Below the pieces are notes generated by a model. The model was not told the origin of the DNA and did no database searches. It saw only the letters and a list, made by a program, of their open reading frames with translations. Positions 5,397 through 57,899 of a stretch of DNA of 64,000 nt are shown here, piece by piece. Source of the DNA: a bacterium (GTDB taxonomy: Bacteria; DUMJ01); the NCBI GenBank assembly GCA_049969715.1, contig JBMFOH010000001.1, positions 72,958-136,957 of the forward strand. The letters run 5' to 3'. Numbering within the stretch: the stretch's first letter is position 1; every line of letters starts with the position of its first letter. A program made the position numbers and the translations under genes.

Positions 5397-5412
5397 ATTA
5401 CATTACCTTCTT

Positions 5413-34193: not shown

Positions 34194-34226
34194 TTTTTTG
34201 GGCTCGATACATCGAGCCCTTTATAT
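34194..34226. terminator. bidirectional intrinsic terminator between convergent genes
   Basis: TTTTTT-GGGCTCGA-TACA-TCGAGCCC-TTTATATTTTT. An 8-bp GC-rich stem with T/A runs on both sides. Confidence 0.7.
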
Positions 34227-34228
34227 TT

Positions 34229-34870
34229 TTAGAATTGAGCAGAATAGCTACCACCTATAACGAATGCATTCCCAATAAAACCTATATCAATCTTGACTGG
34301 TTTTATATAGGTAATTCTTAAGCCTCCATTAAAGTGACGGCTGTATTCAAATATAACCTCTCCTAGTTTTGGAACATTCAGGTTTAAACCGAGGAATGGT
34401 CCTTCATAGATTCCAGTTCCAAGTCCTATATTAAATTTTAGGTCATCTTTTTCTCCGATGGTCTTAGTAGTAACTACATAGAATGACTGTTTATACTGAT
34501 CAATGATATCAGTAATCCCCACTGCTATAGCTGGTATCTCTCCTTTTTCTTTTATAAGCTGTATCTTACCATTTACAAGTATATAAGTATCTGGACCTAT
34601 AGTGGTAGGTGTTACTCCTAGTTCTACTCCATAACTGGCACCTACACTCATTGGGATACGAAAGATAGTCCCTCCATCTGTCTTTACATTTGCTCCAATG
34701 CTAAATGCTCCCGGACTTAATACCTCAGCAGTGGGAGTCTCTATAAGTCCCGTTGGTCCCCATACACTCTGAGTAGCGTAGGCTAAGGAACCGCCTAATA
34801 ACGTAGTAACTACAACTACTATAGAGAGAAGTAAAAATTTACGCAATTGTCTCATCCTCCTTCTTAACAA
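34229..34870 (-). CDS. secreted beta-rich protein, possible outer-membrane beta-barrel (C-terminal Phe)
   Basis: Signal peptide, alternating hydrophobic beta-strand pattern, ends ...GGSYSAQF. Confidence 0.45.
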   Translation of the reverse strand: MLRRRMRQLRKFLLLSIVVVVTTLLGGSLAYATQSVWGPTGLIETPTAEVLSPGAFSIGANVKTDGGTIFRIPMSVGASYGVELGVTPTTIGPDTYILVNGKIQLIKEKGEIPAIAVGITDIIDQYKQSFYVVTTKTIGEKDDLKFNIGLGTGIYEGPFLGLNLNVPKLGEVIFEYSRHFNGGLRITYIKPVKIDIGFIGNAFVIGGSYSAQF

Positions 34871-34947
34871 GTTTTTATTTTATATATTATATAATATGAT
34901 ACAACAGTATCTGGAGTTCGAATCCTGTGGTATAATGTTACTCTACT

Positions 34948-35838
34948 ATGAGGATTGACTACAAAGGGACTATTTTAGCTATAATTGAAACTCTTAGACC
35001 GAAACAGTGGATCAAAAACTTTTTGGTCTTTGCTGGAATAATATTTTCTAAGAACCTATTTAATGTATCCATGCTCTTAGATGTAATATTAACCTTCTTT
35101 ATCTTCTGCCTTTCTTCTGGCATTATCTACACAATAAATGATATGGTTGATGTTGAAAAGGACAAATCGAATCCTTTAAAGGCTACTAGGCCTATAGCAT
35201 CTGGAAGACTTAAGATTAAAGATGCAAAGATAGTAGTAGCTATTTTACTTCCTATCTGCTTAGCCATCTCTTATTCTATGGATGTAAGGTTCTTTCTAGT
35301 AGTTGTATTGTATATAGCCCTTCAGATATTCTATTCCTTCTATCTTAAGAATATTCCTATTTTAGATATATTCTCAATATCCTTAGGTTCTCTATTAAGA
35401 GTAGTAGGAGGGGTGGTAGTTATAGGTGTGGACATCTCTTCTTGGTTATTTATATGTACTATCCTTCTTGCCTTACTTTTGACTATAAGTAAGCGTAGAT
35501 ATGAACTTATAGCACTAGACCAAGAGGCAAAGAATCATAGAATGGTTCTAGCAGAGTACAGTCCGCACCTCTTAGACCAGATGCTCTCTATAGTCACTAC
35601 CTCTCTCCTTGTTACATATATTATGTATACAATTTCAGAGGAAACTATAACAAGATTCGGGACTAAGAGCCTTGTCTTTACAACCCCTTTTGTCCTCTAT
35701 GGGATATTTAGGTATCTTTATCTAATGTACCAGAAAGACTTTGGAGGGAGCCCTGAAAGTGCTATAATCTTTGATAGACCATTGATGATAAATGTTGCCT
35801 TATGGATTATAATAATATTGATATTGATTTATTTATAA
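34948..35838 (+). CDS. UbiA-family prenyltransferase, decaprenyl-phosphate phosphoribosyltransferase (DPPR synthase)-like
   Basis: 296 aa, about 8 TM helices. Carries LRPKQWIKN, the Asp-rich motif TINDMVDVEKDKSNPLK.RPIASG and a second D-rich region. Confidence 0.7.
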   Translation: MRIDYKGTILAIIETLRPKQWIKNFLVFAGIIFSKNLFNVSMLLDVILTFFIFCLSSGIIYTINDMVDVEKDKSNPLKATRPIASGRLKIKDAKIVVAILLPICLAISYSMDVRFFLVVVLYIALQIFYSFYLKNIPILDIFSISLGSLLRVVGGVVVIGVDISSWLFICTILLALLLTISKRRYELIALDQEAKNHRMVLAEYSPHLLDQMLSIVTTSLLVTYIMYTISEETITRFGTKSLVFTTPFVLYGIFRYLYLMYQKDFGGSPESAIIFDRPLMINVALWIIIILILIYL

Positions 35839-35848
35839 AAGAGGTAAA

Positions 35849-36925
35849 ATGTATAGATCGCAGGTAGTAGTATTAAAGACTAGTCCAGAGAGAGTTCTTG
35901 AAGATTATAAGAAGCTTCTTCATCTGGCAGGATATGAGAGGTTTTTATCTAAGGATAGAGATATCATCCTAAAGCTTAATCTTTCTTGGACAAAATATTT
36001 TCCTGCTTGTTCTTCATCTCCTTGGCAGGTAGAGGGGGTTATAAGGACCCTTTTAGAGGATGGCTATTCTAAGGGCAGGATATTTCCTGTAGAGAATAGA
36101 ACAGTGGTAACAAAGCCGGTTATAGGGGCTAGAAATAATAAATGGCTTCCTATCTTAGAGAGGTACCAACTTCCATTTATTCCTCTCACCGAGGTAGAGT
36201 GGGTGAGGTACGACTTTAAAAATAAACTTCTAAAACTAAATGATATATTCCCAGAAGGTATCGAGATCCCAAAGATGTTTATAGGTAAAGATATAGTTCA
36301 CCTCCCTACTGTTAAGACGCATGGACATTCTACTACTACAGGAGCGATAAAAAATTCCTTTGGAGGACTCTTGAAAGAGGTCAGACATTACTGCCATAAG
36401 TATATCCATGAGGTTCTAGTAGACCTCATGATCATCCAGAAGGAGATACATCCAAATGTCTTTGCTGTAATGGATGGAACAGTCTGTGGGGATGGTTCTG
36501 GACCAAGGACGATGATACCAAGAATAAAGAACTATATACTTGCAAGTAGTGATTCGGTAGCAATAGATGCTGTTAGTGCCAAGATGATGGGATTTGAACC
36601 ATTGGATATTCCATACATCAGGATGTGTAATAAGATGGGGTTAGGGGTAGGGGACGTAAAAAATATAGAGATAATAGGAGAGGATATATCTAAGGTTAAT
36701 TTTGGATTTACTACAAAGAAAAGTTTTGTTATCTGGGGAGACCAACTGGTAAGAAAGGGGGCTTTAAACTTTCTAGAAAAGCCATTACTTCATTCCCCTT
36801 TGGTAATACTCCCTATTATGGCTTCGAACATATACCATGACTATATATGGTACCCGATAATTGGGAGAAAAAGAATAAGAGACTTTATGAAGACAGATTG
36901 GGGGAAGCTATTTGAAAGGTATTGA
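35849..36925 (+). CDS. DUF362 domain protein
   Basis: 358 aa with DUF362-like blocks (LKLNLSW, MDGTVCGDGSGP, DAVSAKMMG). 10-nt gap to the UbiA gene. Confidence 0.6.
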   Translation: MYRSQVVVLKTSPERVLEDYKKLLHLAGYERFLSKDRDIILKLNLSWTKYFPACSSSPWQVEGVIRTLLEDGYSKGRIFPVENRTVVTKPVIGARNNKWLPILERYQLPFIPLTEVEWVRYDFKNKLLKLNDIFPEGIEIPKMFIGKDIVHLPTVKTHGHSTTTGAIKNSFGGLLKEVRHYCHKYIHEVLVDLMIIQKEIHPNVFAVMDGTVCGDGSGPRTMIPRIKNYILASSDSVAIDAVSAKMMGFEPLDIPYIRMCNKMGLGVGDVKNIEIIGEDISKVNFGFTTKKSFVIWGDQLVRKGALNFLEKPLLHSPLVILPIMASNIYHDYIWYPIIGRKRIRDFMKTDWGKLFERY

Positions 36926-38696
36926 AAAGGTCTTAGAGAGCAGGATCCTTTTTCTGTTGATTTTGGCTTTGAGTCTTTTCTATCTATTTACCCCTATTAG
37001 GATTGGATATAACATATATGACGAAGGGATAGTTGTATATGGGGCGAACAGGGTCTTTAATGGGGAGATTCCATATAGGGACTTCTGGACCATGTATGCT
37101 CCTGGACAGTTCTATATGGTAGCCCTTCTCTATAGACTCTTTGGAATAGGGCTCTTCCCTGTAAGGGTATATAGTGCTGTTATAAATTTTCTAATTGCAG
37201 TTCTAGCTTATCTGATTGTTAGAAGATTTGCAGGGCATAAAATTGCCATTCTTTCTTTTATATTCACTGTCCTATGGATGGGAGGATGGGGGATGTTTTA
37301 CGGTTCTCCTACGCCTATTGGGACATTCTGGAGTCTATTTAGTATACTCTTTGTGGTTGATTTCCTTGTTAGAAAAAGAACGACTAGTCTTATAATAGCT
37401 GGACTCCTTACAGGTATAACTAGTGTATTTAGACATGATATTGGAGGATATACATTTATTGCCTCTACACTGGTACTTGTCCCATATATTTACATAAATA
37501 TCTCTAGAAGAAATTTGCTCAACACTATAAGACTATGGGGTAGATATCTTCTTGGAACTATAATTATATTTTTGCCTGTGGCGATATATTTTCTAGTAAA
37601 TGTTCCCTATAGAGAACTTATATATGACCTCATTATCTTTCCTGCCAAGATATTCCCTAAGGTAAGAGACCTGCCATATCCTAAATTCGGTCTTGATTTC
37701 AATACCTTCTTATTCTATGCGCCAATCATTGTATATCTGGTTACTATAGTTGAGTTGATGTTGAATATTAAAGATATTAAGAGGTTTAGAGAAAAGGAGT
37801 GGAGTACTGTTCTCCTTTTGATCCTAGGTGTCCTATTCTTTAATCAGGCATGGGTAAGATCAGATGTCCCTCATCTGCTTCCTACTATTATTCCGGCGAT
37901 GTTGCTCCTTTCGAGTTTGATTGTAAGCCCATTAAATAAGGTATTTAGGAGAGGAGAACTGATATTAAAACTCTTTTTCTTATTCTTATCTTTTATCCTG
38001 ATCCTTGCCCTCTATAATAATACCTTAAGAGAGGTCTCGTTTTCAGTGTATATGCTTCCTATTATAGTCCTTTCTCTATTGATATTACTTATCTCTATGC
38101 TCTTTCAGCTCACCTCTTTTAGGGGAAGACGCATCTATCAGGTAGCAACCATTATACTCTGCGGTTTCATCCTTTTCTCATTCTATACCGACAGAATAGA
38201 GAACACTCCTCTTAGTAAACTTCTGTCTTTTAAGATGTTAGGTCTGGTTCCTCTAGAGACAGAACGTGCTAGAGGTATCTATGTATTTCCTGGTCAGGAT
38301 TATTTTGTTTTGGCTACGGTAAAATTTATCCAGATGAATACAAAACCAGACGAGAAGATCTTTATTGGAGATTCTAGACATGATAGGATCTTTGTAAACG
38401 ACATAATGCTCTATTTCCTCTCTGAAAGGAACAGTGCTACAAAGTATCACGAGCTTCACCCAGGGTTAGCAACTACTAAAGAGGTCCAAGATGAGATTAT
38501 AGAAGAGTTGAAGAGGAATAATGTGAGATATGTAGTTCTATGGAATGGAGCAGAAAATGTTATGGAGCCCAATGAGAGTGCTATCAGCTCTGGGGTTACC
38601 GATCTAGATGATTTTATACAGAAGAACTATCTTCCCGTAATGACTTTTGGCCCATACCAGATAAGAGAAAGGGTAATTAATGGAGAGATAAGTTGA
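36912..38696 (+). CDS. polytopic membrane protein, GT-C-like glycosyltransferase candidate
   Basis: 594 aa with at least 12 TM helices. An acidic motif (YDEG) sits in the first extracytoplasmic loop, and a ~170-aa soluble C-terminal domain follows. The gene overlaps the previous one by 14 nt. Confidence 0.5.
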   Translation: MKGIEKVLESRILFLLILALSLFYLFTPIRIGYNIYDEGIVVYGANRVFNGEIPYRDFWTMYAPGQFYMVALLYRLFGIGLFPVRVYSAVINFLIAVLAYLIVRRFAGHKIAILSFIFTVLWMGGWGMFYGSPTPIGTFWSLFSILFVVDFLVRKRTTSLIIAGLLTGITSVFRHDIGGYTFIASTLVLVPYIYINISRRNLLNTIRLWGRYLLGTIIIFLPVAIYFLVNVPYRELIYDLIIFPAKIFPKVRDLPYPKFGLDFNTFLFYAPIIVYLVTIVELMLNIKDIKRFREKEWSTVLLLILGVLFFNQAWVRSDVPHLLPTIIPAMLLLSSLIVSPLNKVFRRGELILKLFFLFLSFILILALYNNTLREVSFSVYMLPIIVLSLLILLISMLFQLTSFRGRRIYQVATIILCGFILFSFYTDRIENTPLSKLLSFKMLGLVPLETERARGIYVFPGQDYFVLATVKFIQMNTKPDEKIFIGDSRHDRIFVNDIMLYFLSERNSATKYHELHPGLATTKEVQDEIIEELKRNNVRYVVLWNGAENVMEPNESAISSGVTDLDDFIQKNYLPVMTFGPYQIRERVINGEIS

Positions 38697-39043
38697 ACTA
38701 TATATTGTTATTGGCTTCTCTGGTCTCTAATGCCTTGGCAAACGTATTTATAAAGGCCGGAATGAAGGATTATAGTGAAGGCATCAGCCTTAAGATGTTT
38801 TTCTATATACTAAGAAGTCCATTTGTTGTTGTAGGGCTCTTATTCTTTGTCGGTGCATTCATCGGCTATAGTTTTTTGCTTTCTAGGATGCAGCTGAGTA
38901 TCGCCTATCCTATAATGACTGGGGCAGGTTTTGCTATTGTATGTGTACTTTCTTATCTTTGGTTTAACGAAAATTTCAGCGTTCTAAAGGTCTTTGGCAT
39001 CTTACTTATCTTTATCGGTATAGTCTTCCTTTCTAGAGGATAG
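38693..39043 (+). CDS. small 4-TM EamA/SMR-like membrane protein (ArnE/ArnF-like flippase subunit candidate)
   Basis: 116 aa, four hydrophobic helices. ATGA overlap with the upstream gene. Confidence 0.55.
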   Translation: MNYILLLASLVSNALANVFIKAGMKDYSEGISLKMFFYILRSPFVVVGLLFFVGAFIGYSFLLSRMQLSIAYPIMTGAGFAIVCVLSYLWFNENFSVLKVFGILLIFIGIVFLSRG

Positions 39044-39057
39044 TTTTATTTTTATTG

Positions 39058-39066
39058 TGTTATAAT
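39058..39066 (+). promoter_or_regulatory. extended -10 promoter element (TGtTATAAT)
   Basis: TGTTATAAT is about 45 nt upstream of the ATG at 39109, with an AAGGAGGGG RBS. Confidence 0.35.
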
Positions 39067-39108
39067 AAAACTGAAAATTAAAATTCTAATGGTAAGGAGG
39101 GGAATATT

Positions 39109-40194
39109 ATGCCTAGAGCTACAACCAAGAAGGAAGAGAAGAAGACTATTAGGGTGGGTGTCATCGGGGTTGGAAAGATAGCAGAAGTTAGACATATTCC
39201 CGAGTATCTCAGTAACAAATCAGTAGAGATGGTAGCACTTGCTGATATAGATACCGTTCAACTTAAGGAGATAGGTGCCAAGTTTAATATTTCTAGTCTT
39301 TACACAGATTATAAAGAGATGCTAAAAAAGGAAAGACTTGATGCAGTAAGTGTATGTACTCCAAACTATCTTCACGCCTCTATGACCATAGATGCTCTTA
39401 ATGAGGGGATTAATGTTCTAGTAGAGAAACCTATGGCTACATCTTTAGAAGAGGCAGATAAGATGATCGAGGCAGCAAAGAAGAATAAGAAGATTCTTAT
39501 GGTAGATCATAACCAGAGGTTAGCACCAGGACATCAGATAGGGAAGAAGATTTTAGAGAGTGGTATCCTAGGAAAGGTATATACGGTTAGAACAGTCTTT
39601 GGCCATAGTGGTCCAGAATTTTGGAGCCCTAGAGGGAAATGGTTCTTCAGTAAGAAAGAAGCCTTTGCTGGAGTTATGGCTGATCTTGGCGTTCATAAGG
39701 TAGATGTAGTAAGGTGGTTACTTGGGCGAGAGGTAAAAAGAATAGCAGCTTTTGGTGCTACATTTGAAAAGAAGGCAGATGTGGAAGACAATGGAGTAGC
39801 CATTATGGAGTTTGAGAATGGAACATTAGGAATACTTCAAGTAAGCTGGACACTTAAGCCAGGAGAGGACAATAGTACCATATTCTATTGTGAAAAAGGG
39901 ATGCTTAAGCTCTTTACAGACCCAGAAAGACCGGTAATAGTAAGTCTAAGAGAAAAGGGAGATTTTATGGCTGGATTTGCTAAAGGAGAGATGTCATTTT
40001 CTCTGCCTCCTATGCAGACGAATGAGGTTGGCGGACAGTTTAGTAGTGGGATTATTGATTATTTTGTAGATTGTATCCTTAAGAATGAGAAGCCTTTTAT
40101 CTCTGGGGAGGAAGGGAGAAAGGCCATGGAGATTGTAATTGGTATACTGAGGTCTGCGGAGACAGGAAAGGTAGTAGAGCTTCCTTTAAAATAA
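39109..40194 (+). CDS. Gfo/Idh/MocA family NAD(P)-dependent oxidoreductase
   Basis: N-terminal Rossmann (IRVGVIGVGKIA) and an EKP motif, with a C-terminal alpha/beta domain. Confidence 0.8.
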   Translation: MPRATTKKEEKKTIRVGVIGVGKIAEVRHIPEYLSNKSVEMVALADIDTVQLKEIGAKFNISSLYTDYKEMLKKERLDAVSVCTPNYLHASMTIDALNEGINVLVEKPMATSLEEADKMIEAAKKNKKILMVDHNQRLAPGHQIGKKILESGILGKVYTVRTVFGHSGPEFWSPRGKWFFSKKEAFAGVMADLGVHKVDVVRWLLGREVKRIAAFGATFEKKADVEDNGVAIMEFENGTLGILQVSWTLKPGEDNSTIFYCEKGMLKLFTDPERPVIVSLREKGDFMAGFAKGEMSFSLPPMQTNEVGGQFSSGIIDYFVDCILKNEKPFISGEEGRKAMEIVIGILRSAETGKVVELPLK

Positions 40195-40206
40195 GTCTGG
40201 AGGTGA

Positions 40207-41184
40207 TTGAGATTGAAATTGGGTGTGTTTCTTGTATTGTTTCAGAATCTATCATTGGAACAGGCGCTAGATAAGGCTCGTTCCTATGGGCTTGAAGCAG
40301 TAGAGATTGGATGTGGAGGATACCCTGGAAATGCTCATTGTAAACCAGGTGAGCTCTTAAAGGACAAGGAGGCAGTGAAGAAATTTAAGAAGACTGTTGA
40401 GGGTAGGGGTCTTGTTATAAGTGCCTTGAGTGTCCATGGGAATCCTATTCATCCACAGAAGGAGATAGCGGAACAGTTCCATAAGGATTGGGAAGATACG
40501 GTAAGACTAGCTAGTGAGCTAGAGGTTCCAGTAGTAATATCGTTCTCTGGTTGCCCTGGAGATTCCGAAAATTCTAAGTATCCTAACTGGGTAACCTGTG
40601 CCTGGCCTCTTGATTATCAGGCTATCTTAAAATGGCAATGGGAAGAAAAGATTATACCCTACTGGAAGAAACAGGCAGATTTTGCTAACTCTTATGGGAT
40701 AAAGAAGATTGCCTTAGAGTTACATCCGGGTTTTGCTGTTTATAGCGTTGATACCTTACTAAAATTGAGAAAAGCAGTTGGTCCTGCAATAGGTGCAAAT
40801 CTGGATCCAAGTCATCTCTTTTGGCAAGGAGTTGATCCAGTATCCGCGATAAGGGCTTTAGGTAAGGAGAATGCAATCTTCCACTTCCATGCAAAGGATA
40901 CCTATATAGACCCTGTAAATACCTCGGTCAATGGTGTGTTAGACGCCAAGCCTTATACTCAAGTACTGGAGAGGTCTTGGATATTTAGAAGTGTAGGCTA
41001 TGGACATGACTATAAGGTATGGAAGGATATAGTAAGTACGCTTAGAACTGTTGGATATGATTATGTAATGAGTATTGAGCATGAAGATGGGCTAGCCTCT
41101 ATAGAGGAAGGGCTATCCAAAGCAGTAAGTTTCCTAAAAGAGGTTATGTTGAAAGAGCTACCGGCAGTACCCTGGTGGACATAG
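40207..41184 (+). CDS. sugar phosphate isomerase/epimerase (xylose isomerase-like TIM barrel)
   Basis: 325 aa, AP-endonuclease-2 / TIM-barrel family. Confidence 0.7.
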   Translation: MRLKLGVFLVLFQNLSLEQALDKARSYGLEAVEIGCGGYPGNAHCKPGELLKDKEAVKKFKKTVEGRGLVISALSVHGNPIHPQKEIAEQFHKDWEDTVRLASELEVPVVISFSGCPGDSENSKYPNWVTCAWPLDYQAILKWQWEEKIIPYWKKQADFANSYGIKKIALELHPGFAVYSVDTLLKLRKAVGPAIGANLDPSHLFWQGVDPVSAIRALGKENAIFHFHAKDTYIDPVNTSVNGVLDAKPYTQVLERSWIFRSVGYGHDYKVWKDIVSTLRTVGYDYVMSIEHEDGLASIEEGLSKAVSFLKEVMLKELPAVPWWT

Positions 41185-41191
41185 GTTCTTA

Positions 41192-41222
41192 GGGGATAGC
41201 CTAGAGGCTATCCCCTTTTTTA
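41192..41222 (+). terminator. intrinsic terminator
   Basis: GGGGATAGCC-TAGA-GGCTATCCCC followed by TTTTTTACTTTTT. The loop overlaps the herA-like stop codon. Confidence 0.7.
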
Positions 41223-42913
41223 CTTTTTATCCTTCTTATCAGATCGATCTCAGATATCATAAATGAATCTGTTCTATATTCTGATTCTTTACTCTCTTCA
41301 TACCTTGTAGCCCAGGCAGGCATAGGAAACCTTATAAGAACCGTTTGGGGTAGATTCGGCTGATAAACAAGCATCTGTCCAGGTATTAGATATTGAACCC
41401 TTCTTTTATTTAATGGACCTAGATAATCATATTCACTGTGCTCCGCCTCACTAGCATCCATATTGCCGCACACTCTTATAGATGCGTTTGATACAACCCT
41501 ATGAGATACTTCACTAGCAGTTTGCTGTGCTCCTACCAGTATTATCCCTAAACTTCTTCCTCTTTCAGCTATATCGAGGACGGTATCTGCGATGGGACTT
41601 TCTCCTGTTTGAGGAGCATATTTATTGAGTTCGTCAAGAACTATAAATACCAAGGGCCAAGGTGTTCCAGATTCCTCCTTCTTTTCTACTATAGATTTAA
41701 GGACTGCGCCTACAGTAAAATATTGAGCCCTTGGTGTAAGTCTGTGAATATCTATCACATTTACCTGGGCTTCCTCCCAATCTATTCTATAATCTGTTTC
41801 CTCAAAGGGTAAAGACTCAGGCAGTATCAGTGAGCCTATATCGTGTTCAGCCCTATACAACCTTCTTATAAATGCATCTCGAGTGGATTGAGCAACCCTT
41901 CCAAGAATATCATCTATATTGTCTTCTAATGTCTTTACCATACTTTCAATAGACTGAAATCCAAACTCTCCACTCATCTCTTTATTAAGCCAGTTAGTAG
42001 CCAATTTTATTGCCAAATACAGCTGACTTGTATCAGAGAGATCTTTAGGAGAGAATAGATACCAGAATAAGTCTTGAGTTGCAATATCTTTTATAGTCCA
42101 GGCAAAAGGCTTTACTCCATCCATTCTACTTTCAGTATTTGGTAGGACCTCTTCATACTGCCCTCTCCTTGGCCTGGGAGGAGCATAGAATCTTACACTT
42201 CCAAATGGTTTTGGCTCAAGTCCCATAATTTCATATATCTTTTTCTCCTGGTCACTTAACATTACATTTGGTTTATCCAAGAATAAGAGGTCTTCTCCCT
42301 TTACGTTGAATATTACTGCATGAGTATTCCTAAGTCCTGCTGCCGGATAGGCACTTAGAACCTCTTTAAGTTTTGAAAAGAATGAGTAGAGTAAAAATGT
42401 GGCATAAGAGGTCTTAGTTGCTACACCACTCTTACCGCTTATATTTATATGGGCACCTTTCATCCCAAGGAGAAAGTCTAGGTCTATGTATGCAGGGGCA
42501 TTGTTAGAAAGTACTCCACAAGGTATCCTTCTTTTACCCATCGTATCATAATAAAGGGCAAACTCTGTGTCTTGAGCAGTAGCCAATCTTACCTCTTTCC
42601 CAGGCTTTGGAGGGACCTTTGGACTGCTTCCATCATCTGCCAATGTCCTAGTAGCTACTACGTGACAGTAATATGTAAGGTTGGCATCAAAGAGTCCTTG
42701 AGAATGAAATCTTGCCTGTTCATTAGTCTCTATCCCTTCTAATTTATGAATTACCTGATCTACAATTCCATATATCGTTACATTCCCAAACCTAGGATAC
42801 TCACATGAGGTTACTACAATATCATCGACTTGAACAGCGTAATCTGAATTTACCTCTATATAAAATTCAAATGGGGTTGCATCCTTAGTTCCTAATACTA
42901 TTCCTATTGCCAT
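41201..42913 (-). CDS. herA: HerA-like (FtsK/HerA superfamily, DUF87-type) ATPase
   Basis: 570 aa. N-terminal HAS-barrel-like segment (GIVLGTKDATPFEFYIEV...VDDIVV), a P-loop-like ISGKSGVATKTS, a Walker-B-like FIVLDELNKY and a C-terminal GIILVGAQQ block. Confidence 0.65.
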   Translation of the reverse strand: MAIGIVLGTKDATPFEFYIEVNSDYAVQVDDIVVTSCEYPRFGNVTIYGIVDQVIHKLEGIETNEQARFHSQGLFDANLTYYCHVVATRTLADDGSSPKVPPKPGKEVRLATAQDTEFALYYDTMGKRRIPCGVLSNNAPAYIDLDFLLGMKGAHINISGKSGVATKTSYATFLLYSFFSKLKEVLSAYPAAGLRNTHAVIFNVKGEDLLFLDKPNVMLSDQEKKIYEIMGLEPKPFGSVRFYAPPRPRRGQYEEVLPNTESRMDGVKPFAWTIKDIATQDLFWYLFSPKDLSDTSQLYLAIKLATNWLNKEMSGEFGFQSIESMVKTLEDNIDDILGRVAQSTRDAFIRRLYRAEHDIGSLILPESLPFEETDYRIDWEEAQVNVIDIHRLTPRAQYFTVGAVLKSIVEKKEESGTPWPLVFIVLDELNKYAPQTGESPIADTVLDIAERGRSLGIILVGAQQTASEVSHRVVSNASIRVCGNMDASEAEHSEYDYLGPLNKRRVQYLIPGQMLVYQPNLPQTVLIRFPMPAWATRYEESKESEYRTDSFMISEIDLIRRIKSKKGDSL

Positions 42914-43902
42914 CTTTGACCTCCTTTGTGGGCTTCTGCTATAAGTCTTCTCAATGTTACCCTTATATGATCTAGAGGATGAAACATTGCCCTAAGTCTT
43001 CTCTCTAGACTTTCTAAGGGTGCTAGATTCTCTGGAGCCCTGCTACTTAAAGTGTTGCTACTAGCCAAGGTTGGTAAGAGGTACCCTGAGAATTGCGCTA
43101 AGTCTATTACCTCTTCTAATGTTAAATTTGAGGGGGCTTCCAATCTTACCAGTCCTAAAAATTGGTGTTCAAAATACTGAGGGTCTTTTAGTCTTAGATA
43201 CCAAGAATATTTTAATGGCAGGTCCTCTGATGTTTCTATAAGAAATACAGGTGTCCTCTCTCCTCTCCTTAATGAGACTAGTGTCTCCCAACATCTACCT
43301 GTAAGATAGTATCTACGGGTACTTTTTACAAAACCTAAAGTGACCCCTGTTTTAGAAAACGGCACCTGTAATGGTCCATCAGCAATTACAGTATAACCCA
43401 TCATAGATAGTTTTAGTGCTGTTTCCTTTTCTCTTTCTCTCATCTTTTGAAGAAACATTCTGTATATACCCTCGTCCCCTGTTTCTACTGCATTTACTGG
43501 TTCATATCTTGCCTTCCCCAAAAGAAGGGGACTATTTACTGTTATCCCTGGAGGGAATACTATTATACATTCTGCCTGGTTTCTCTCCATCACCTTACCC
43601 TTACTTAGATCAAATGCCCCAACTACGAACTCTCCAAGCAGTGCAGACCTACCTGAGTTACCAATCATAAGATGGGTATCTGTTCTACGAACCCCGTCTA
43701 CCAAGGCTACCTTATCTATTACTACTTTTCTATCTATCTTTATAGGTCGCCAGTTTTTCCCCTCTAGTTCTACGTCTTGATTTACCCTTACCGGTAGGGT
43801 CTCATTATTCAGGTCTACTGGGTCATCTAAGGTATCATTCCACCAGGTTTGAGATATCTCGAACCTTTTTATAAACTCAATTGCCGAACTATCTAATTTC
43901 AT
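42904..43902 (-). CDS. NurA-like nuclease candidate (HerA partner)
   Basis: 332 aa and Arg-rich. The gene is translationally coupled to the ATPase gene (10-nt overlap) and carries hhhDG motifs (ALVDGV, VIADGP). The assignment rests on context and weak motifs. Confidence 0.4.
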   Translation of the reverse strand: MKLDSSAIEFIKRFEISQTWWNDTLDDPVDLNNETLPVRVNQDVELEGKNWRPIKIDRKVVIDKVALVDGVRRTDTHLMIGNSGRSALLGEFVVGAFDLSKGKVMERNQAECIIVFPPGITVNSPLLLGKARYEPVNAVETGDEGIYRMFLQKMREREKETALKLSMMGYTVIADGPLQVPFSKTGVTLGFVKSTRRYYLTGRCWETLVSLRRGERTPVFLIETSEDLPLKYSWYLRLKDPQYFEHQFLGLVRLEAPSNLTLEEVIDLAQFSGYLLPTLASSNTLSSRAPENLAPLESLERRLRAMFHPLDHIRVTLRRLIAEAHKGGQRWQ

Positions 43903-47516: not shown

Positions 47517-48578
47517 ATGAATCATGCTAGAAAGGAAAGAGTTGAGAATTATCTAAGAGCGATAAATTTTCAACATCCAATATGGATACCTAGCAGGGTT
47601 AGTATTATGCCTGCTACTTGGAGAAAGTATCGAGAGGCTTTAGAAGAAATTGTTCTTAGACATCCTAAGATATTCCCCGATTACAGAAAGGGAAGCGTAG
47701 ACTTTGATGCAGTGAGTGATCCAGGATACCGTAAGGGAAAATTTAAAGACAGCTGGGGATGCGTATGGGAAAATATAGAAGAGGGGTTAGAAGGAATAGT
47801 TATAGAGTCTCCACTAGATGATTGGGAGAAGTTTGATAGTTATATTCCACCAGACCCTATAGTGCAGGAAGAAAGAGGAGGGGAACTAGACTGGGAAAAG
47901 GCTAGAGAAGTATTGAGAGAAAGAAAACTTAGGGGAGAATTAGCTACAGGTGGACTACGTCACGGATTTATGTATATGAGACTTTACTACCTTAGAGGTT
48001 TTGAGAATCTTATGATAGATATAGCAACAGAAGACCCAAGATTAGAGAGACTGATAGATATGGTTCTTGAATATAATATAAAGCTTATAAAGAAATGGAT
48101 CGATGTAGGGGCAGAATTCCTATACTTTGGAGACGATTTAGGAAATCAAGATAGGCTCCCGATAAGTCCTGAGAAATGGAGAAGATATCTAAAGCCATGT
48201 TATAAAGAAATGTTTGGTTTATGTAGAGAAAACAATGTCTATGTTTATTTCCATACCGATGGTCATATCCTAGAGATTGTAGATGACTTGATAGAATGTG
48301 GAATAAATGTATTGAACCCACAGGTAAGAGCGAATACGATAGATGGGCTAGTAAAGACAGCAAAAGGTAAGGTGTGTATAGATTTAGACCTAGATAGACA
48401 GTTATTTCCATTTGCCACACCTAAAGAGATAAGAGAACATATAGAAGAGGCAGTGAGAAGATTAAACAGCCCGAATGGTGGTTTGATTCTTATGGCTGAA
48501 TGTGAGCCAGATGTTCCTCTTGAGAATATAGATGCTATATGTAGTGTATTAGAAGATGTCGGAGGGCCATCGGTATAG
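47517..48578 (+). CDS. uroporphyrinogen decarboxylase (URO-D) family protein
   Basis: 353 aa with a URO-D-like TIM barrel. Exact function unclear (MtaA/CmuA-like is possible). Confidence 0.6.
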   Translation: MNHARKERVENYLRAINFQHPIWIPSRVSIMPATWRKYREALEEIVLRHPKIFPDYRKGSVDFDAVSDPGYRKGKFKDSWGCVWENIEEGLEGIVIESPLDDWEKFDSYIPPDPIVQEERGGELDWEKAREVLRERKLRGELATGGLRHGFMYMRLYYLRGFENLMIDIATEDPRLERLIDMVLEYNIKLIKKWIDVGAEFLYFGDDLGNQDRLPISPEKWRRYLKPCYKEMFGLCRENNVYVYFHTDGHILEIVDDLIECGINVLNPQVRANTIDGLVKTAKGKVCIDLDLDRQLFPFATPKEIREHIEEAVRRLNSPNGGLILMAECEPDVPLENIDAICSVLEDVGGPSV

Positions 48579-49148
48579 GGTTATCTTGTATCTTTTCTCT
48601 CTTTCTATAACTACTATAGTATTATGGGAGATGTCAAGGTTCCAGTATGTATTACCAGTAGAGCCTATTAGGTCAAATATAAGTGCTTTTATAGGTCCTG
48701 CATGTGTGACTACTAAGATATCCTGAGATTTATTACTCTGAAACATCTCCTCTATTGCAGCTCTTACTCTATTGGCAAGTTCTTTTAGGGTCTCTCCATT
48801 GGGAGGAGACACTGTCCAGGGGTCTTTTTGCCACATCTTGAATAGTTTTGAATCCTCTTCCATCTCAAAGATAGATTTTCCTGTCCAGTTACCAAAGTCC
48901 ATTTCTCTAAGAGATTCTTTGTATGTGATGTTTTGGAGATCTAACTCTTTTGCTATAATCTCTGCCGTCTCCTTTGCCCTAGTTAGGTCACTTGAATATA
49001 TAATAGAGACCCTCTTACCTTTAAATGCAGAAGCTAAAACCTTGGCTTCTTTTCTTCCCAGTTCATTTAGAGGTATATCTTTTTGCCCCTGATATAATCC
49101 GTTTTTATTCCAATCTGTTTCTCCATGCCTTACAAGGTATATCTTCAT
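48549..49148 (-). CDS. cobC: alpha-ribazole phosphatase (histidine phosphatase family)
   Basis: N-terminus MKIYLVRHGETDWN (RHG catalytic motif). Last gene of the cob salvage operon. Confidence 0.7.
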   Translation of the reverse strand: MKIYLVRHGETDWNKNGLYQGQKDIPLNELGRKEAKVLASAFKGKRVSIIYSSDLTRAKETAEIIAKELDLQNITYKESLREMDFGNWTGKSIFEMEEDSKLFKMWQKDPWTVSPPNGETLKELANRVRAAIEEMFQSNKSQDILVVTHAGPIKALIFDLIGSTGNTYWNLDISHNTIVVIEREKRYKITLYRWPSDIF

Positions 49149-49855
49149 AATATCAACAGGGTAATTAATTCAGTTATTTCACATATAGCACCATACATAT
49201 CCCCTGTAAGTCCTCCTATCCTTCTAGTAAGATATAATCCTATTAGATATCCTATAATAATTACAGCAAAAAATGCAAGTAATCCCTTCTCCCCTCCTGT
49301 TAAAAGACCCAGTACTAGAGTAATAGCTCCAGAAAAGATGATATCTCGTTGGGTTAATACGTTAGAGAATATACTCCCCTTTCCCTCCTTCCTTCCGTAT
49401 GGGAAGAGATAGATGGAAAGAGTTATTAGAAACCTTCCATATATAGGAGCCACTATAACTCGTGTATAAGCGTTATATCCCTCTCCCAAGGAGAGAAACT
49501 TAAGTGTTAGCAGAAAGAATATTGCTAGTGCACCCATTGTGCCTATCCTACTATCCCTCATAACCTCTAAGATACTTTCTCTGTCCTTTCTGCTAAGAAT
49601 ACCATCAAAGGTATCTGCTAGTCCATCTATATGGATACCACCAGTTATACCCTCCCAAGCTAGGATAGTAAGCATTATAGATATCCAGTACCCAGTAATT
49701 CTAGAAAAGAAGAATAAGAAAAGGGATAGGCTAAGACCTAGAAAAAATCCAACTAAGGGGAAAACTCTTGGGCTTTTTGCTAAAGCCCTCTCGTCTGTGC
49801 TTCTATTTATAGGCACAATTGTGAGAAATTTTAGAGCCTCGAGAAACTCATTCAC
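49145..49855 (-). CDS. cobS: adenosylcobinamide-GDP ribazoletransferase (cobalamin synthase)
   Basis: CobS-like TM protein. I prefer the GTG start at 49855 (MNEFLEALKFLTIVP) because it has an AGGAG RBS and overlaps the cobT stop by 8 nt. The ORF-track start at 49903 would overlap cobT by 56 nt. Confidence 0.75.
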   Translation of the reverse strand: MNEFLEALKFLTIVPINRSTDERALAKSPRVFPLVGFFLGLSLSLFLFFFSRITGYWISIMLTILAWEGITGGIHIDGLADTFDGILSRKDRESILEVMRDSRIGTMGALAIFFLLTLKFLSLGEGYNAYTRVIVAPIYGRFLITLSIYLFPYGRKEGKGSIFSNVLTQRDIIFSGAITLVLGLLTGGEKGLLAFFAVIIIGYLIGLYLTRRIGGLTGDMYGAICEITELITLLIL

Positions 49856-50906
49856 CCTTTGAAACTCCTGCCTCTTCGAATGTGAGCATATTATAGTAGG
49901 CATTTAGGGCACAGTCTATAATTATCATCCCTATAGCTGAACCAGTGCCTTCACCAAGTCGCATATCTAAGGTAAGCATCGATCTAAGACCCATTTGGTC
50001 TAGGGCTATCTTATGTCCTGGTTCTTGGGATAGATGCGAAGGTATGATATAGGGAAGGACATCTGGCGTAATCTTGTAAGCTAATAATGCTCCGATCGTA
50101 GAGATAAATCCATCTATTACCACTGGCTTTCTAAGATAAGCACACCCTATGACGAGTCCTGCTATTGCTCCTATCTCTAGTCCCCCTACCTTCTCTAGCA
50201 CATCAATAGGGTCATTAGGATTTGGTTTATGAAGCCTTATTGCTTCACTTATAACTGTTCTTTTCTTCTTTATACCCTCTTTATCTAATCCTGTCCCAGC
50301 ACCTACTATTGAATCTAAAGATACATCCTTAGCAAATACACTAAGTATAGCAGTAGATGGGGTTGTATTCCCTATCCCCATCTCACCTGTCCCTACGATG
50401 TCTATCTTCATTTTATCTAATTCTTCTGCCATCTGGATACCAACCTCTATACATTTTATGGCTTCATCTCTAGTCATAGCTGGCTCTTGAGAGAAGTCAT
50501 TTGTCCCATGTCTTACATTATAATTCCTGAATGAAGGGTGGTTAAATTCAACAGGATGAGCTATCCCTACATCTACCACAAAAACCTCTGCGTTGGCTCT
50601 AGATGCAATAGCATTTATTCCTGCTCCTCCATTTAGAAAATTCCTTACCATCTGAACGGTTACCTCTTGGGGATAGGCGCTGACTCCCCTTTTTACGATT
50701 CCATGGTCTCCAACCATTATTACTATAGCCTTTTTGTTTATCTTGGGAGAGGGGTCTCCTCTAATCCCAGCTAATTGGACTACTATCTCTTCCAACCTTC
50801 CTAAACTCTTACGGGGCTTTGTTAAGCTATCCCATCTCTTCCATGCCTTTTCTTGGGCATCCTCTACTAATGGTCTTATATTAGACACTATTTCATCAAG
50901 TTTCAT
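49848..50906 (-). CDS. cobT: nicotinate-nucleotide--dimethylbenzimidazole phosphoribosyltransferase
   Basis: 352 aa with conserved CobT blocks (GIGNTT, ...GE.GIG). Confidence 0.85.
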   Translation of the reverse strand: MKLDEIVSNIRPLVEDAQEKAWKRWDSLTKPRKSLGRLEEIVVQLAGIRGDPSPKINKKAIVIMVGDHGIVKRGVSAYPQEVTVQMVRNFLNGGAGINAIASRANAEVFVVDVGIAHPVEFNHPSFRNYNVRHGTNDFSQEPAMTRDEAIKCIEVGIQMAEELDKMKIDIVGTGEMGIGNTTPSTAILSVFAKDVSLDSIVGAGTGLDKEGIKKKRTVISEAIRLHKPNPNDPIDVLEKVGGLEIGAIAGLVIGCAYLRKPVVIDGFISTIGALLAYKITPDVLPYIIPSHLSQEPGHKIALDQMGLRSMLTLDMRLGEGTGSAIGMIIIDCALNAYYNMLTFEEAGVSKGE

Positions 50907-51405
50907 TCTTTACCTCCATGGGAATTCCTGCCACCATAAAGTAAACCTTCTGGGCTAGTTTTGCAAATATCTGATTAACCTTTCCTAATGTATCCCTATA
51001 CCTTCTTGCCAGAGGATATTCTGGAACTATACTGAGTCCAACCTCATTAGAAACTACAATTACCTTCTTATCTATAGACCTAACATATTGAGCTATCTCT
51101 TCTGCCATTTCTACTATATGTTTATCTGGATACTTCTCTATCAGGTTAGATACCCAGAGTGTAAGGCAATCTAAGATTATACAGTCCTCTTTTACCACTT
51201 TTATGGCACTCATTATATCCTCTGGAGCTTCTATAGTTTTCCAGTGCGAAGGCCTTTCAATTTTATGCCTTTCTATCCTCTCTTTCATCTCCTCATCTAA
51301 GGGTAATGCGGTGGCTATAAAAGCCACCGCATCGCCCTTACTAAGTTCCAATGCGAAGCTACTCTTTCCACTTCTAGCTCCGCCAATGATAAATACTAAA
51401 CTCAT
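50896..51405 (-). CDS. cobU: adenosylcobinamide kinase / adenosylcobinamide-phosphate guanylyltransferase
   Basis: 169 aa with P-loop GGARSGKS. Confidence 0.85.
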   Translation of the reverse strand: MSLVFIIGGARSGKSSFALELSKGDAVAFIATALPLDEEMKERIERHKIERPSHWKTIEAPEDIMSAIKVVKEDCIILDCLTLWVSNLIEKYPDKHIVEMAEEIAQYVRSIDKKVIVVSNEVGLSIVPEYPLARRYRDTLGKVNQIFAKLAQKVYFMVAGIPMEVKNET

Positions 51406-52637: not shown

Positions 52638-53390
52638 CTATATCAGATTGGCTTCTATTAGAAATTCTTGGTCTGAGAATATACTCCTATAATCTCCAGT
52701 TTTTAAAATCTCTTTATTCTCTCCTAATACATATATCTTATCTGCTATATCTGGAATTATCTTTAGGTCATGGGTAGCAGTTATGATTGTTTTATTTTCG
52801 TTGCGGAACCTTTTGATAAATTCTAGTAGTTCCCTGACACTTCTTGGGTCTAGCCCATTAGTTGGTTCGTCTAATAGAAGTACAGTAGGTTCTATAACAA
52901 GTAGACTTGCCAATGCTATTTTCTTCTTCTCCCCCTCACTCAATTGATAGGGTGACAAGCCTAATAGGTGCGAGATACGGAAGAAGTCTGCGGTTTCTTT
53001 TATTCGTTCTTTTATCTTATTGGGGTCAAGCCCAAGTTGAATAAGGCCAAAGGCTATCTCATCCTCAACAGTAGGAGAGAAAAGCTGAGCGTTTACATCC
53101 TGAAAGAGTAAGACTACGTTTCTTCTAAAGAATCTATTAAATTCAGGGTCATCAAAACTCTTCTCTGTTATATCCCTTCCAAATGCATATATAGAACCTC
53201 TAGATGGAAAGATAAGCCCATCTAACAGTTTTAAGAGGGTCGTCTTCCCCGAGCCATTTGCTCCGATGATAGCAACACTCTCTCCTCTTTCCACCTCCAT
53301 GTTTATAGAGGCAAGGGCAAATCTATGGTTTAAATACGAGTAACTTACATTACTAAGTTTAAATATCAGCCTTTGGTCTAACCCTTCCAA
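52638..53390 (-). CDS. cbiO: ECF/ABC transporter ATP-binding protein (CbiO/NikO/LarO-like)
   Basis: 250 aa with Walker A GANGSGKTT, signature LSEGEKKKIA and Walker B LLLDEPT. Confidence 0.75.
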   Translation of the reverse strand: MEGLDQRLIFKLSNVSYSYLNHRFALASINMEVERGESVAIIGANGSGKTTLLKLLDGLIFPSRGSIYAFGRDITEKSFDDPEFNRFFRRNVVLLFQDVNAQLFSPTVEDEIAFGLIQLGLDPNKIKERIKETADFFRISHLLGLSPYQLSEGEKKKIALASLLVIEPTVLLLDEPTNGLDPRSVRELLEFIKRFRNENKTIITATHDLKIIPDIADKIYVLGENKEILKTGDYRSIFSDQEFLIEANLI

Positions 53391-54540
53391 TAGCTTGATT
53401 TATGACCTCCTTCATTATATCCTGTACAGGTAATCCCGTCTTTTCAGCAATAACCTTACAATCATCATATTCTGGCGTTATCTTGGGTGTATCGTCTATA
53501 TAAGAGACCTTTACCTTAGCTATCCCCCATGGGGTATCAACTTCTATTATTTCTCTAGGTAGCATAACCTTCTCTACCTCATACATCCTAACCCCAATAG
53601 AGGTCGTCTCTCTAAATATTATGTCCACGATACTGTTTATCGCATCCTTTGGAGAAATGACAGTAAGCTTTACCGCTGGCCTAGACTTTTTCATATATAT
53701 TGGTGTAAAGAAGACATCGAGTGCTCCAGCACTAAATAACCTATCCATAATATATCCATAGATCTGTGGATTCATATCGTCTATGTTTACATCTATAATC
53801 GTATTTGTATCCCTCTGTTTACTATAATAGAGCTCCCCTATAATAGCTCTTACCATATTTGGTATAGGGAAATCCTTTTTGCCTACCCCATATCCTATCC
53901 TTTCCACTGTAATAAATGGTATCTCTCCAAATCTATAGGTGAGGGTAGAGATGATCCCTGCCCCTGTTGGTGTAACAAGCTCTCCTTTTATACCATTAGA
54001 ATATACTGGAACACCCTTTAATAACTCTACAGTAGCGGGTGCGGGAACAGGAAGCCTTCCATGAGCAGTTTCAATAAATCCTTCTCCCAAAGGCAGAGGA
54101 GAACTGTATACCCTTTCTATACCGAGGAGCTTCAACCCTAACACGCTTCCTACCACGTCTATTATAGTATCTATTCCTGCCAATTCGTGAAGATGGACCT
54201 CTTCTATACTCTCTCCATGGATCTTAGCCTCACTAGATGCGATCTTGTATAATATATTGAGACTTTTCTCTTTTGTACCCTCTTCAAGATCACTTTTTTC
54301 TATAATCTCTAGGATATCCTTTGCGTGTCTATGGGTAACATTGTCTTCTACGATTACATTAACACTTGTTCCAGTTAGAGCCTTCTTCTTTACCCTTGAG
54401 ATTTCTATTCTGTAACCTTTGAGATGGAGTTTTCCTAGCTCTTTTTCCCAGGGTTCTCTATCAAGTCCTAGATCAAAGAGAGCACCAAGAAGCATATCTC
54501 CACTTATCCCATTGAAACAATCCAGATATATAGCCTTCAT
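53359..54540 (-). CDS. larC: nickel-pincer cofactor biosynthesis nickel insertion protein LarC
   Basis: The N-terminus MKAIYLDCFNGISGDMLLGALFDLG is the LarC/DUF111 signature. 393 aa. Confidence 0.85.
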   Translation of the reverse strand: MKAIYLDCFNGISGDMLLGALFDLGLDREPWEKELGKLHLKGYRIEISRVKKKALTGTSVNVIVEDNVTHRHAKDILEIIEKSDLEEGTKEKSLNILYKIASSEAKIHGESIEEVHLHELAGIDTIIDVVGSVLGLKLLGIERVYSSPLPLGEGFIETAHGRLPVPAPATVELLKGVPVYSNGIKGELVTPTGAGIISTLTYRFGEIPFITVERIGYGVGKKDFPIPNMVRAIIGELYYSKQRDTNTIIDVNIDDMNPQIYGYIMDRLFSAGALDVFFTPIYMKKSRPAVKLTVISPKDAINSIVDIIFRETTSIGVRMYEVEKVMLPREIIEVDTPWGIAKVKVSYIDDTPKITPEYDDCKVIAEKTGLPVQDIMKEVINQAIGRVRPKADI

Positions 54541-54541
54541 A

Positions 54542-56894: not shown

Positions 56895-56896
56895 GG

Positions 56897-57886: not shown

Positions 57887-57899
57887 CAATATCACCTCC

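Follow-up and report, generated by a model that had tools for sequence, protein, structure and literature searches.

The window analysed here, a 64,000-nucleotide stretch of a contig from a bacterium of the GTDB lineage DUMJ01, contains a cluster of six genes that most likely makes a lipid-carried pentose and attaches it to the cell surface. The first four genes form one translationally coupled block and encode a UbiA-superfamily enzyme, a DUF362 protein, a polytopic membrane protein of 594 residues and a small SMR-like membrane protein of 116 residues; genes for a Gfo/Idh/MocA oxidoreductase and a xylose-isomerase-like TIM-barrel protein follow. There is a good likelihood that the system belongs, as a variant, with the three-component pentofuranose glycosylation systems described from Citrobacter and numerous further bacteria (Kelly et al., PNAS 2024; PMC11127046). 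In these, a homologue of Rv3806c acting as polyprenyl phosphoribose synthase is combined with a flippase and a GT-C enzyme, to which cytoplasmic epimerases are optionally added, either the SDR protein ORF13, leading to xylofuranose, or homologues of DprE1/DprE2, leading to arabinofuranose (PMC11127046). The new element of the present cluster is the partner of the synthase, a deeply conserved and intein-bearing DUF362 protein with a predicted LarA fold, of which we found no report in the literature searched. As a full explanation, we favour on balance a three-component system for extracytoplasmic pentofuranose glycosylation in which DUF362 would carry out the tailoring of the sugar.

The putative phosphoribosyltransferase and its DUF362 partner

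Comparison of the UbiA homologue with known enzymes gives good support to its assignment as a putative polyprenyl-phosphate 5-phosphoribosyltransferase of the decaprenyl- or polyprenyl-phosphoryl-5-phosphoribose (DPPR/PPPR) synthase type. The first-pass annotation of the window had likened it to Rv3806c on the basis of two motifs, LRPKQW and N64-D65-x2-D68-x3-D72; both are indeed present, and the likeness is confirmed by profile scores, alignment to a solved structure and ligand residues. The protein of 296 residues, which corresponds to a UbiA domain alone (86.7 bits, above the Pfam gathering cut-off) with no fused phosphatase domain, scores above the cut-offs of two NCBIfam equivalog models, with 278.6 bits in NF008977 (cut-off 234) and 207.8 in NF008978 (cut-off 207). 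The models of quinone, haem and chlorophyll prenyltransferases reach 20–58 bits against cut-offs of 180–390, and those of archaeal-lipid prenyltransferases are likewise far under their cut-offs. Residues 9–290 align end to end, with an E-value of 1e-30, with Mycobacterium tuberculosis Rv3806c as solved by electron cryomicroscopy (PDB 8j8j), whose ligands for Mg, pyrophosphate, ribose and the 5-phosphate have been described (PMC10994848). Ten of these ligands are kept in the alignment, R22, K28, Y70, N73, D77, K87, R90, Q135, Y138 and K143 of Rv3806c being equivalent to R17, K23, Y61, N64, D68, K78, R81, Q126, Y129 and K134 of the window protein, and among the mapped residues only Y157 and K208 differ, being replaced by S and M, respectively. 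Mg and pyrophosphate are bound in Rv3806c by N73, D77 and Y138 together with the Lys/Arg cluster R22, K87, R90 and K143, and the phosphoribose-specific ligands K28, Y70 and Q135 are absent from ordinary UbiA enzymes (PMC10994848). The profile scores and the ligand residues together rule out a quinone, haem or chlorophyll prenyltransferase.

The DUF362 protein is a regular partner of this synthase across many phyla. It has thousands of relatives, the best 120 of which come from different phyla at 71–91% identity, and when one genome of each species was scanned, a relative turned up in 448 species, the carriers including Planctomycetota, Nitrospirota, Zixibacteria, Aminicenantes, Ignavibacteria, Acidobacteriota, Latescibacterota, Bacillota and Actinomycetota. 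Gene neighbourhoods were counted in the 80 best DUF362 loci, 67 of them with enough upstream flank. A UbiA gene of the DPPR-synthase-like type lies at most 600 bp from DUF362 in 46 of the 80 loci (43 of the 67); the two genes are co-directional in 34 of these 46 and divergent in 12, which are planctomycete. The pairing survives at a DUF362 identity of 31% (locus L092), where the UbiA protein again scores above the equivalog cut-off.

The GT-C, SMR-like, Gfo and TIM-barrel genes of the window are detectable near the pair in no lineage but the closest one. In other phyla the pair adjoins GT-C genes from other families, namely PMT_2 together with SMR in L066, a TMEM260-like/PMT_2 gene in L065, GT87 in L071 and PMT_2 with TPR repeats in L054. 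A Thermodesulfobacteriota contig (L174) shows the order GT87-UbiA-DUF362-Glycos_transf_4 within a surface-glycan locus containing Wzy and glycosyltransferase genes, and in Zixibacteria and Ignavibacteria DUF362 is the last gene of an operon with Wza-like, Wzz-like, tyrosine-kinase-like and polysaccharide-deacetylase genes, the UbiA gene being present in some of these loci and absent from others. Conserved co-occurrence of the cluster genes, as considered in the first-pass annotation, thus holds for the UbiA-DUF362 pair and for GT-C genes as a class; it does not extend to the Gfo and TIM-barrel genes outside the lineage. No functional report on DUF362, PF04015 or Npun_F2552 was found in the literature searched, in agreement with the earlier description of the family as one of no assigned function.

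Fold and possible function of DUF362

The AlphaFold model of DUF362 (pLDDT 85.6) matches the LarA superfamily only, ten LarA-family chains ranking first in the Foldseek search, so that the protein is predicted to have the fold of the nickel-cofactor racemases/epimerases. DUF362 and DUF2088 (LarA) are both held in Pfam clan CL0471 (PMC11770544). At the level of sequence, PF04015 (87.3 bits, above the gathering cut-off) is the sole Pfam match, PF09861/DUF2088 not being hit, and neither the protein nor its profile finds any match among PDB sequences, even at E = 10. A transmembrane (TM) segment is lacking (maximal Kyte-Doolittle mean over 19 residues of 1.14), which rules out a membrane anchor; speculatively, the aromatic-rich C-terminal extension could be interfacial.

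LarA enzymes invert a C-OH centre by transferring a hydride to the nickel-pincer nucleotide and returning it to the opposite face of the keto intermediate. This is the same overall chemistry as that of DprE1/DprE2 on decaprenyl-phospho-ribose. It is possible, and we propose it tentatively, that DUF362 is an epimerase of lipid-linked ribose acting in place of DprE1/DprE2. The wider proposal, according to which the whole synthase-associated DUF362 clade would be a nickel-pincer-nucleotide-dependent, single-protein polyprenyl-phospho-ribofuranose epimerase, present in more than 15 phyla and replacing DprE1/DprE2 without being homologous to them, is in our estimation unlikely to hold in full.

Residues of DUF362 were mapped onto LarA by profile alignments made in three ways, with the close subfamily, with 39 diverse relatives, and with these 39 plus classical DUF362 proteins against three LarA sequences; the LarA query sequence was checked to be identical to 5huq. 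The mapping is only suggestive. In the best alignments, which are not significant though they share a single register, H158 falls on the catalytic LarA H174 and K168 on K184, the cofactor tether. H180, H183 and H187 lie 12–19 residues past K168, the LarA nickel ligand H200 being 16 residues past K184. No histidine of DUF362 is aligned, again without significance, with LarA H108, where E82 and N83 are conserved; single-histidine LarA homologues exist (9q3j; PMC12611868). A classical, ferredoxin-containing DUF362 protein reads HEMAGFGGAIK where LarA has HFFAGFSGGRK. H158 and K168 are invariant in the close subfamily, and D209, D235 and D240 are invariant family-wide, i.e. in the 39 diverse relatives; SSSPW and HSTTTG are conserved loops rich in Ser and Thr. 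One full-length relative 53% identical to the window protein (P0234) carries the replacements H158 to R, H160 to Y and K168 to E, among others, and is possibly an inactive paralogue.

Seven cluster representatives of the DUF362 clade (P0231, P0233, P0239, P0248, P0252, P0253 and P0256) contain inteins, five of them with a LAGLIDADG endonuclease, and in the three sequences that were read the insertion lies exactly between K156 and T157, in the motif PTVK|THGH. We know of no earlier report of inteins in DUF362 proteins. Inteins typically occupy functionally critical motifs of highly conserved proteins, and their insertion marks the PTVK|THGH loop as important.

A complete gene set for the synthesis of the nickel-pincer nucleotide is found 16 kb from the cluster, embedded in an operon for a Ni/Co energy-coupling-factor transporter (Table 1). 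The operon was identified from Pfam matches to Ni_insertion (478 bits), AIRC, CbiQ and CbiM and from NCBIfam equivalogs for LarC (206.9 bits against a cut-off of 90, with LarC2), LarB (300.4 against 175) and LarE (324.8 against 150). The genes larB, larC and larE span 53359–56103, and a cbiN-like open reading frame (ORF) lies at 56897–57217; with all three lar genes present, the organism is predicted to produce the cofactor. Among named organisms, the closest relatives of LarC, 54–61% identical, are from Dictyoglomaceae. No DUF2088/LarA gene was found among the window ORFs of at least 120 residues, nor in about 10 kb past the right end (L093); among the roughly 20 genes nearest to larC, DUF362, at about the 18th place, is alone in encoding a protein of predicted LarA fold. 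Orphan lar clusters have recently been used to find new nickel-pincer enzymes (PMC13524815). The operon could supply its cofactor to DUF362, which is suggestive and not conclusive; the link between DUF362 and nickel-pincer chemistry is the least certain of our proposals.

Two independent LarC loci also have a DUF362 gene 3–4 kb downstream. The first (L166, 6328–15175) comprises, on one strand, two genes for aldo-keto-reductase-like proteins with Fe-S tails, a gene of the MBL fold and the series larC-larE-larB-NiCoT-DUF362; its DUF362 is of the classical ferredoxin-containing type, and the locus is a candidate for a LarA-less lar cluster. In the second (L110), larB-larC is followed 3.3 kb on by another DUF362 gene. 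In a metagenome-assembled genome (MAG) of Nitrospirota (L010), nikR-like, cbiM, cbiN-like and cbiQ genes (6066–8479) lie about 4 kb downstream of a DUF362 gene of the UbiA-linked type; the 870 bp of upstream sequence present there contain no UbiA gene. Between the cluster and the lar operon of the window, at 47517–48578 (+) and 48549–51405 (-), there are genes for the lower ligand and nucleotide loop of cobalamin (a cobC-like histidine phosphatase, cobS, cobT and cobU) together with genes for a periplasmic binding protein and a URO-D/MtaA-like methyltransferase; CobU, CobT and CobS genes are also found near the UbiA-DUF362 pair of L175.

Removal of the 5-phosphate is required for every lipid donor derived from phosphoribosyl pyrophosphate (PRPP), epimerisation being optional, and known systems use phosphatases of differing families; a Pseudomonas synthase with a separate phosphatase is also mentioned (PMC11127046). 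A universal partner of the synthase would most simply fill this universal step, and DUF362 might be the missing 5-phosphoribose phosphatase, analogous to Rv3807c or to PRP, the HAD domain of Citrobacter ORF15, the cluster then delivering unmodified ribofuranose. The Ser/Thr-rich loops mentioned above could bind phosphate, and most two-gene modules, like the window cluster, contain no other phosphatase. We nevertheless judge this alternative improbable: no hydrolase is known with the LarA fold (PMC11770544), and phosphatase candidates of two families adjoin the pair, which would be redundant if DUF362 were itself the phosphatase. Indeed, a HAD hydrolase gene with nucleotidase-like profile matches comes directly after DUF362 in 12 Planctomycetota loci, and in L175 a PHP phosphoesterase gene overlaps the start of the UbiA gene. 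The association of a varying phosphatase with a constant DUF362 of racemase fold would favour a tailoring role for the latter. Elsewhere in the window, genes for a histidine phosphatase and metallophosphoesterases occur in unrelated contexts.

Membrane proteins, appended genes and layout of the cluster

The 594-residue protein is well supported as a GT-C glycosyltransferase, with a polyprenyl-P-pentose as its presumed donor and an envelope component as its presumed acceptor. It matches PMT_2 (33.1 bits against a Pfam gathering cut-off of 26.1) and shows the GT-C fold; it has some 11 or more TM helices, and approximately residues 440–594 form an alpha/beta domain at its C-terminus. In the first external loop, after TM1, the motif Y36-D37-E38-G39 is present as first described; D37 is kept in 37 of the 47 relatives compared, E38 in 36, and D57, within YRDFW, in all 47. 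This loop with D37-E38 and D57 matches the acidic first-loop motif of GT-C catalysts, so that the earlier prediction of a GT-C enzyme with an acidic loop motif, rather than a transporter, is borne out. The 110 relatives of the protein include no annotated GT136 member. Homologues of at most 41% identity occur in unlinked loci, which rules out the GT-C family as a whole as a companion of UbiA-DUF362.

The 116-residue protein has four hydrophobic segments, passes the Pfam model Multi_Drug_Res/SMR (37.4 bits against 23.7) and matches EamA weakly. The gene is coupled to that of the GT-C enzyme, its product being SMR-like, as had been proposed; the resemblance to ArnE/ArnF that was proposed along with it is only faint, the NCBIfam models ArnF (3e-6) and ArnE (8e-3) giving weak matches under their cut-offs. 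A membrane-embedded Glu in TM1 (E14 of EmrE) is required for drug/H+ antiport by SMR transporters. TM1 of the window protein, MNYILLLASLVSNALANVFIKAG, contains no acidic residue, which argues against drug/proton antiport and fits a flippase for a lipid-linked sugar; the NCBIfam models of drug-efflux proteins are all far under cut-off. From its context, the protein is a candidate flippase subunit for polyprenyl-P-pentose. SMR-like homologues also come after DUF362 in L002, L037 and L066.

The two last genes of the cluster are lineage-specific accessories, which may serve either a second tailoring step or an unrelated sugar metabolism. The Gfo protein (GFO_IDH_MocA N- and C-terminal domains, above the Pfam gathering cut-offs) has as its best PDB relatives inositol 2-dehydrogenase 3cea and the C-glycoside 3-oxidoreductase DgpA (7xr9), at E-values of about 1e-31, and the TIM-barrel protein (AP_endonuc_2, 112 bits, likewise above cut-off) has 2zds as its sole PDB sequence match (8.5e-16). 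The TIM-barrel gene accompanies the cluster in L002, L088, L089 and L090, and the Gfo gene in L002, L088 and L090.

It had been suggested that this pair plays the part of DprE1/DprE2. The Gfo and TIM-barrel proteins would then act together on the lipid-linked ribose, first oxidising it and then isomerising or reducing it, DUF362 having a non-catalytic or unrelated role. The pair does travel with the four-gene core in this lineage despite changed flanks (L088, L090), no terminator separates the SMR-like and Gfo genes, and relatives of Gfo include sugar 3-dehydrogenases (DgpA, glycoside 3-dehydrogenases) that work with TIM-barrel partners. On the other hand, the pair is missing from every other phylum with UbiA-DUF362, L089 keeps the rest of the cluster without the Gfo gene, the pair stands behind a promoter-like element of its own, and other Gfo/TIM-barrel genes of the same genome are found in sugar-catabolic settings (18351–19121, and a trio in L093). 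The suggestion is not supported by this distribution, since the cross-phyla partner of the synthase is DUF362, with its predicted racemase/epimerase fold; we give it a small probability. The L093 trio (4179–6494, about 4–6 kb past the right end of the window) consists of a Gfo/Idh/MocA gene in two ORFs, possibly frameshifted, a small membrane protein gene of the Sm_multidrug_ex family and a xylose-isomerase-like TIM-barrel gene. It echoes the order SMR-Gfo-TIM and suggests that such a trio may be a module of its own.

The six ORFs were found where they had first been described, all on one strand, and the junctions of the first four measure +10, -14 and -4 nt (Table 1). The extended -10 element reported before the Gfo gene is present, inside the 65-nt spacer that follows the SMR-like gene, and a scan by regular expression located a second such element 12 nt 5' of the UbiA start codon; the latter, TGGTATAAT, is by its match to the consensus a candidate promoter of the four coupled genes. 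Strong terminator-like hairpins flank the block, one at 34200–34219 and the other at its end (Table 1), and its interior contains none. In the NCBI record of the source MAG, the first three products are named decaprenyl-phosphate phosphoribosyltransferase, DUF362 domain-containing protein and ArnT family glycosyltransferase. The order of the six genes is kept in two related metagenomic contigs (L088 and L090), and without the Gfo gene in a third (L089); the flanks of these contigs differ. The recurrence of the order with differing flanks indicates that the arrangement is not due to chance.

Table 1. Features of the cluster and of the nickel-pincer operon, in window coordinates
Feature	Position	Strand	Remarks
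Extended -10-like element TGGTATAAT	34928–34936	+	found by regular-expression scan; 12 nt 5' of the UbiA start codon
UbiA-superfamily synthase gene	34948–35838	+	296 aa
DUF362 gene	35849–36925	+	358 aa, cytoplasmic; predicted LarA-like fold; conserved C-terminal helical extension
GT-C glycosyltransferase gene	36912–38696	+	594 aa
SMR-like 4-TM protein gene	38693–39043	+	116 aa
Extended -10-like element TGTTATAAT	39058–39066	+	SMR-Gfo spacer
Gfo/Idh/MocA oxidoreductase gene	39109–40194	+	361 aa; NAD-dependent sugar oxidoreductase
Xylose-isomerase-like TIM-barrel gene	40207–41184	+	325 aa
Hairpin terminator	41191–41216		11-bp stem, 7 G-C pairs; ends the six-gene block, common to the convergent HerA-like gene
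Operon cbiM, cbiN-like, cbiQ, larE, larB, larC, cbiO	52638–57914	-	Pfam and NCBIfam

Upstream of the cluster and divergent from the UbiA gene, a gene at 34229–34870 (-) encodes a secreted protein of 213 residues with a YjbH (exopolysaccharide-associated) domain, which is not kept beside the cluster in relatives. Convergent with the cluster, at 41201–43902 (-), are the genes of a 570-residue protein with a weak match to HerA/DUF87 ATPases and of an overlapping 332-residue protein without family match, followed by FloA flotillin and NfeD; all four genes also follow the cluster in L088 and L089. The gene content of the window, at about 38% G+C, is saccharolytic, with alpha-L-arabinofuranosidase, GH3, GH2, GH38 and acetyl-xylan esterase. 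Phage-borne versions were looked for in IMG/VR, and there were none.

The proposed pathway and its relation to known systems

The pathway that we propose would begin at the cytoplasmic face of the membrane, where the UbiA enzyme, judging from its homology and conserved ligands, would move 5-phosphoribose from PRPP to polyprenyl phosphate. The 5-phosphate would then be removed by a phosphatase encoded outside the cluster. In the least certain step, DUF362 would invert a single hydroxyl on the ring of lipid-linked ribose by hydride transfer via a transient keto intermediate, yielding arabinofuranose by inversion at C2 or xylofuranose by inversion at C3; a single protein, possibly using the nickel-pincer nucleotide, would thus do the work of DprE1 plus DprE2 or of the SDR ORF13. 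The SMR-like protein, by its context, would flip the resulting polyprenyl-P-pentose, and the GT-C enzyme would transfer the pentose to an envelope acceptor, conceivably a glycan, lipid or protein. In this scheme we infer the flippase, the acceptor and which pentose is carried. The cluster had been described as a self-contained pathway that makes, tailors, flips and transfers a sugar; its overall logic fits the known type of system, and what is missing for self-containment is the 5-phosphate phosphatase.

Several observations weigh against this reading. No HAD, PAP2 or PHP gene is detected by Pfam and NCBIfam at 34.2–41.2 kb, so the cluster encodes no phosphatase. The GT-C enzyme is PMT_2/ArnT-like and probably related neither to GT136 nor to the Aft/Emb enzymes, so that its donor could be a different polyprenyl-P-sugar, and its remoter homologues (Roseilinea, Thioalkalivibrio and others) stand in other glycan loci without UbiA or DUF362. 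In 21 of the 67 loci with sufficient flank there is no UbiA gene within 8 kb of DUF362. As for the relationship of DUF362 to LarA, the profile-profile comparisons never became significant (hhalign probabilities of 0.1–1.4%), and in relatives at 30–45% identity H158 is found in 27 and K168 in 15 of 39 sequences. Concerning the cofactor, no lar genes were found within 8 kb of DUF362 in 92 loci, 80 of them anchored on DUF362; a survey of 80 metagenome loci anchored on LarC, which has little power, yielded no LarA and two DUF362 genes; and the genome may encode a LarA at another place.

A further alternative takes UbiA-DUF362 to make a distinct PRPP-derived membrane lipid or cofactor-like metabolite, the GT-C and SMR-like proteins being an unrelated ArnT-like module that joined the operon by chance in this lineage; the pair is conserved at a housekeeping level (about 70% identity across phyla) and hosts inteins, which is unusual for decoration genes of the serotype type, and in many loci it has no glycan genes nearby (e.g. 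in Aminicenantes, with queF, queE and queC), but beside it, in unrelated phyla, there are repeatedly GT-C genes from at least three families as well as classical surface-glycan genes, and the four window genes are translationally coupled, so that we hold it to be very improbable.

The glycosylation system that we favour is most closely comparable to those of Citrobacter youngae O1 and O2 (ORF15, ORF14 and ORF12, with ORF13 in addition in O2). Both combine, in clustered genes, a PRPP-dependent synthase of UbiA type, a flippase and a GT-C enzyme, the PRPP dependence and the flippase being predicted for the window, and in Citrobacter an optional cytoplasmic epimerase likewise sets the identity of the pentose. 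The window differs in that its synthase lacks the fused HAD phosphatase domain, its flippase candidate is SMR-like instead of MATE, its GT-C enzyme is PMT_2/ArnT-like and probably not of GT136, the family of the prototype, its epimerase candidate is the LarA-fold DUF362 and not an SDR (ORF13) or DprE1/DprE2, and Gfo and TIM-barrel genes are appended. The cluster contains no SDR or FAD-oxidase gene, and the related loci annotated with Pfam have none called either. The statement of the first-pass annotation that no such pathway is characterised outside Actinobacteria is contradicted by the Citrobacter O antigens and by the Pseudomonas homologues (PMC11127046).

With the mycobacterial decaprenyl-phospho-arabinose pathway (Rv3806c, Rv3807c, DprE1/DprE2, Rv3789, Aft/Emb) the cluster shares a homologous first enzyme, in which the PRPP, Mg and 5-phosphate ligands are kept, a small 4-TM flippase candidate, and the logic by which lipid-linked ribose is epimerised, flipped and transferred by a GT-C enzyme. 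The similarity to ArnT/ArnE/ArnF is limited to a GT-C enzyme of PMT_2/ArnT type adjoined by a small SMR/DMT-like protein and to a polyprenyl-P-pentose donor made in the cytoplasm; the Arn donor derives from UDP-sugar chemistry (ArnA, ArnB, ArnC and ArnD), none of which is present here, whereas the window synthase is predicted to be PRPP-dependent, and the ArnE and ArnF NCBIfam scores of the SMR-like protein are far under cut-off. Compared with the 2-hydroxy-acid nickel-pincer racemases/epimerases of the LarA superfamily (DUF2088), DUF362 has no significant sequence similarity, is about 70 residues shorter and carries a C-terminal helical extension of its own, and it presumably acts on a lipid-linked sugar instead of a hydroxy acid.

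The mycobacterial arabinan pathway, against which ethambutol and DprE1 inhibitors are directed, draws on lipid-linked pentofuranoses derived from PRPP, and these were recognised in 2024 as a general route for the decoration of bacterial surface glycans. The present analysis reveals a branch of that route in many, mostly uncultured phyla, in which the partner of the synthase is DUF362 and not DprE1/DprE2 or an SDR. If DUF362 is an epimerase, this would be the first function for DUF362/PF04015 and a one-enzyme, redox-neutral epimerisation of a lipid-linked sugar. If it moreover depends on the nickel-pincer nucleotide, nickel-pincer chemistry would be extended from hydroxy acids to membrane glycolipids; DUF362 would be the first enzyme of the LarA superfamily to act on a lipid-linked sugar, which would help to explain the occurrence of larB, larC and larE without LarA.

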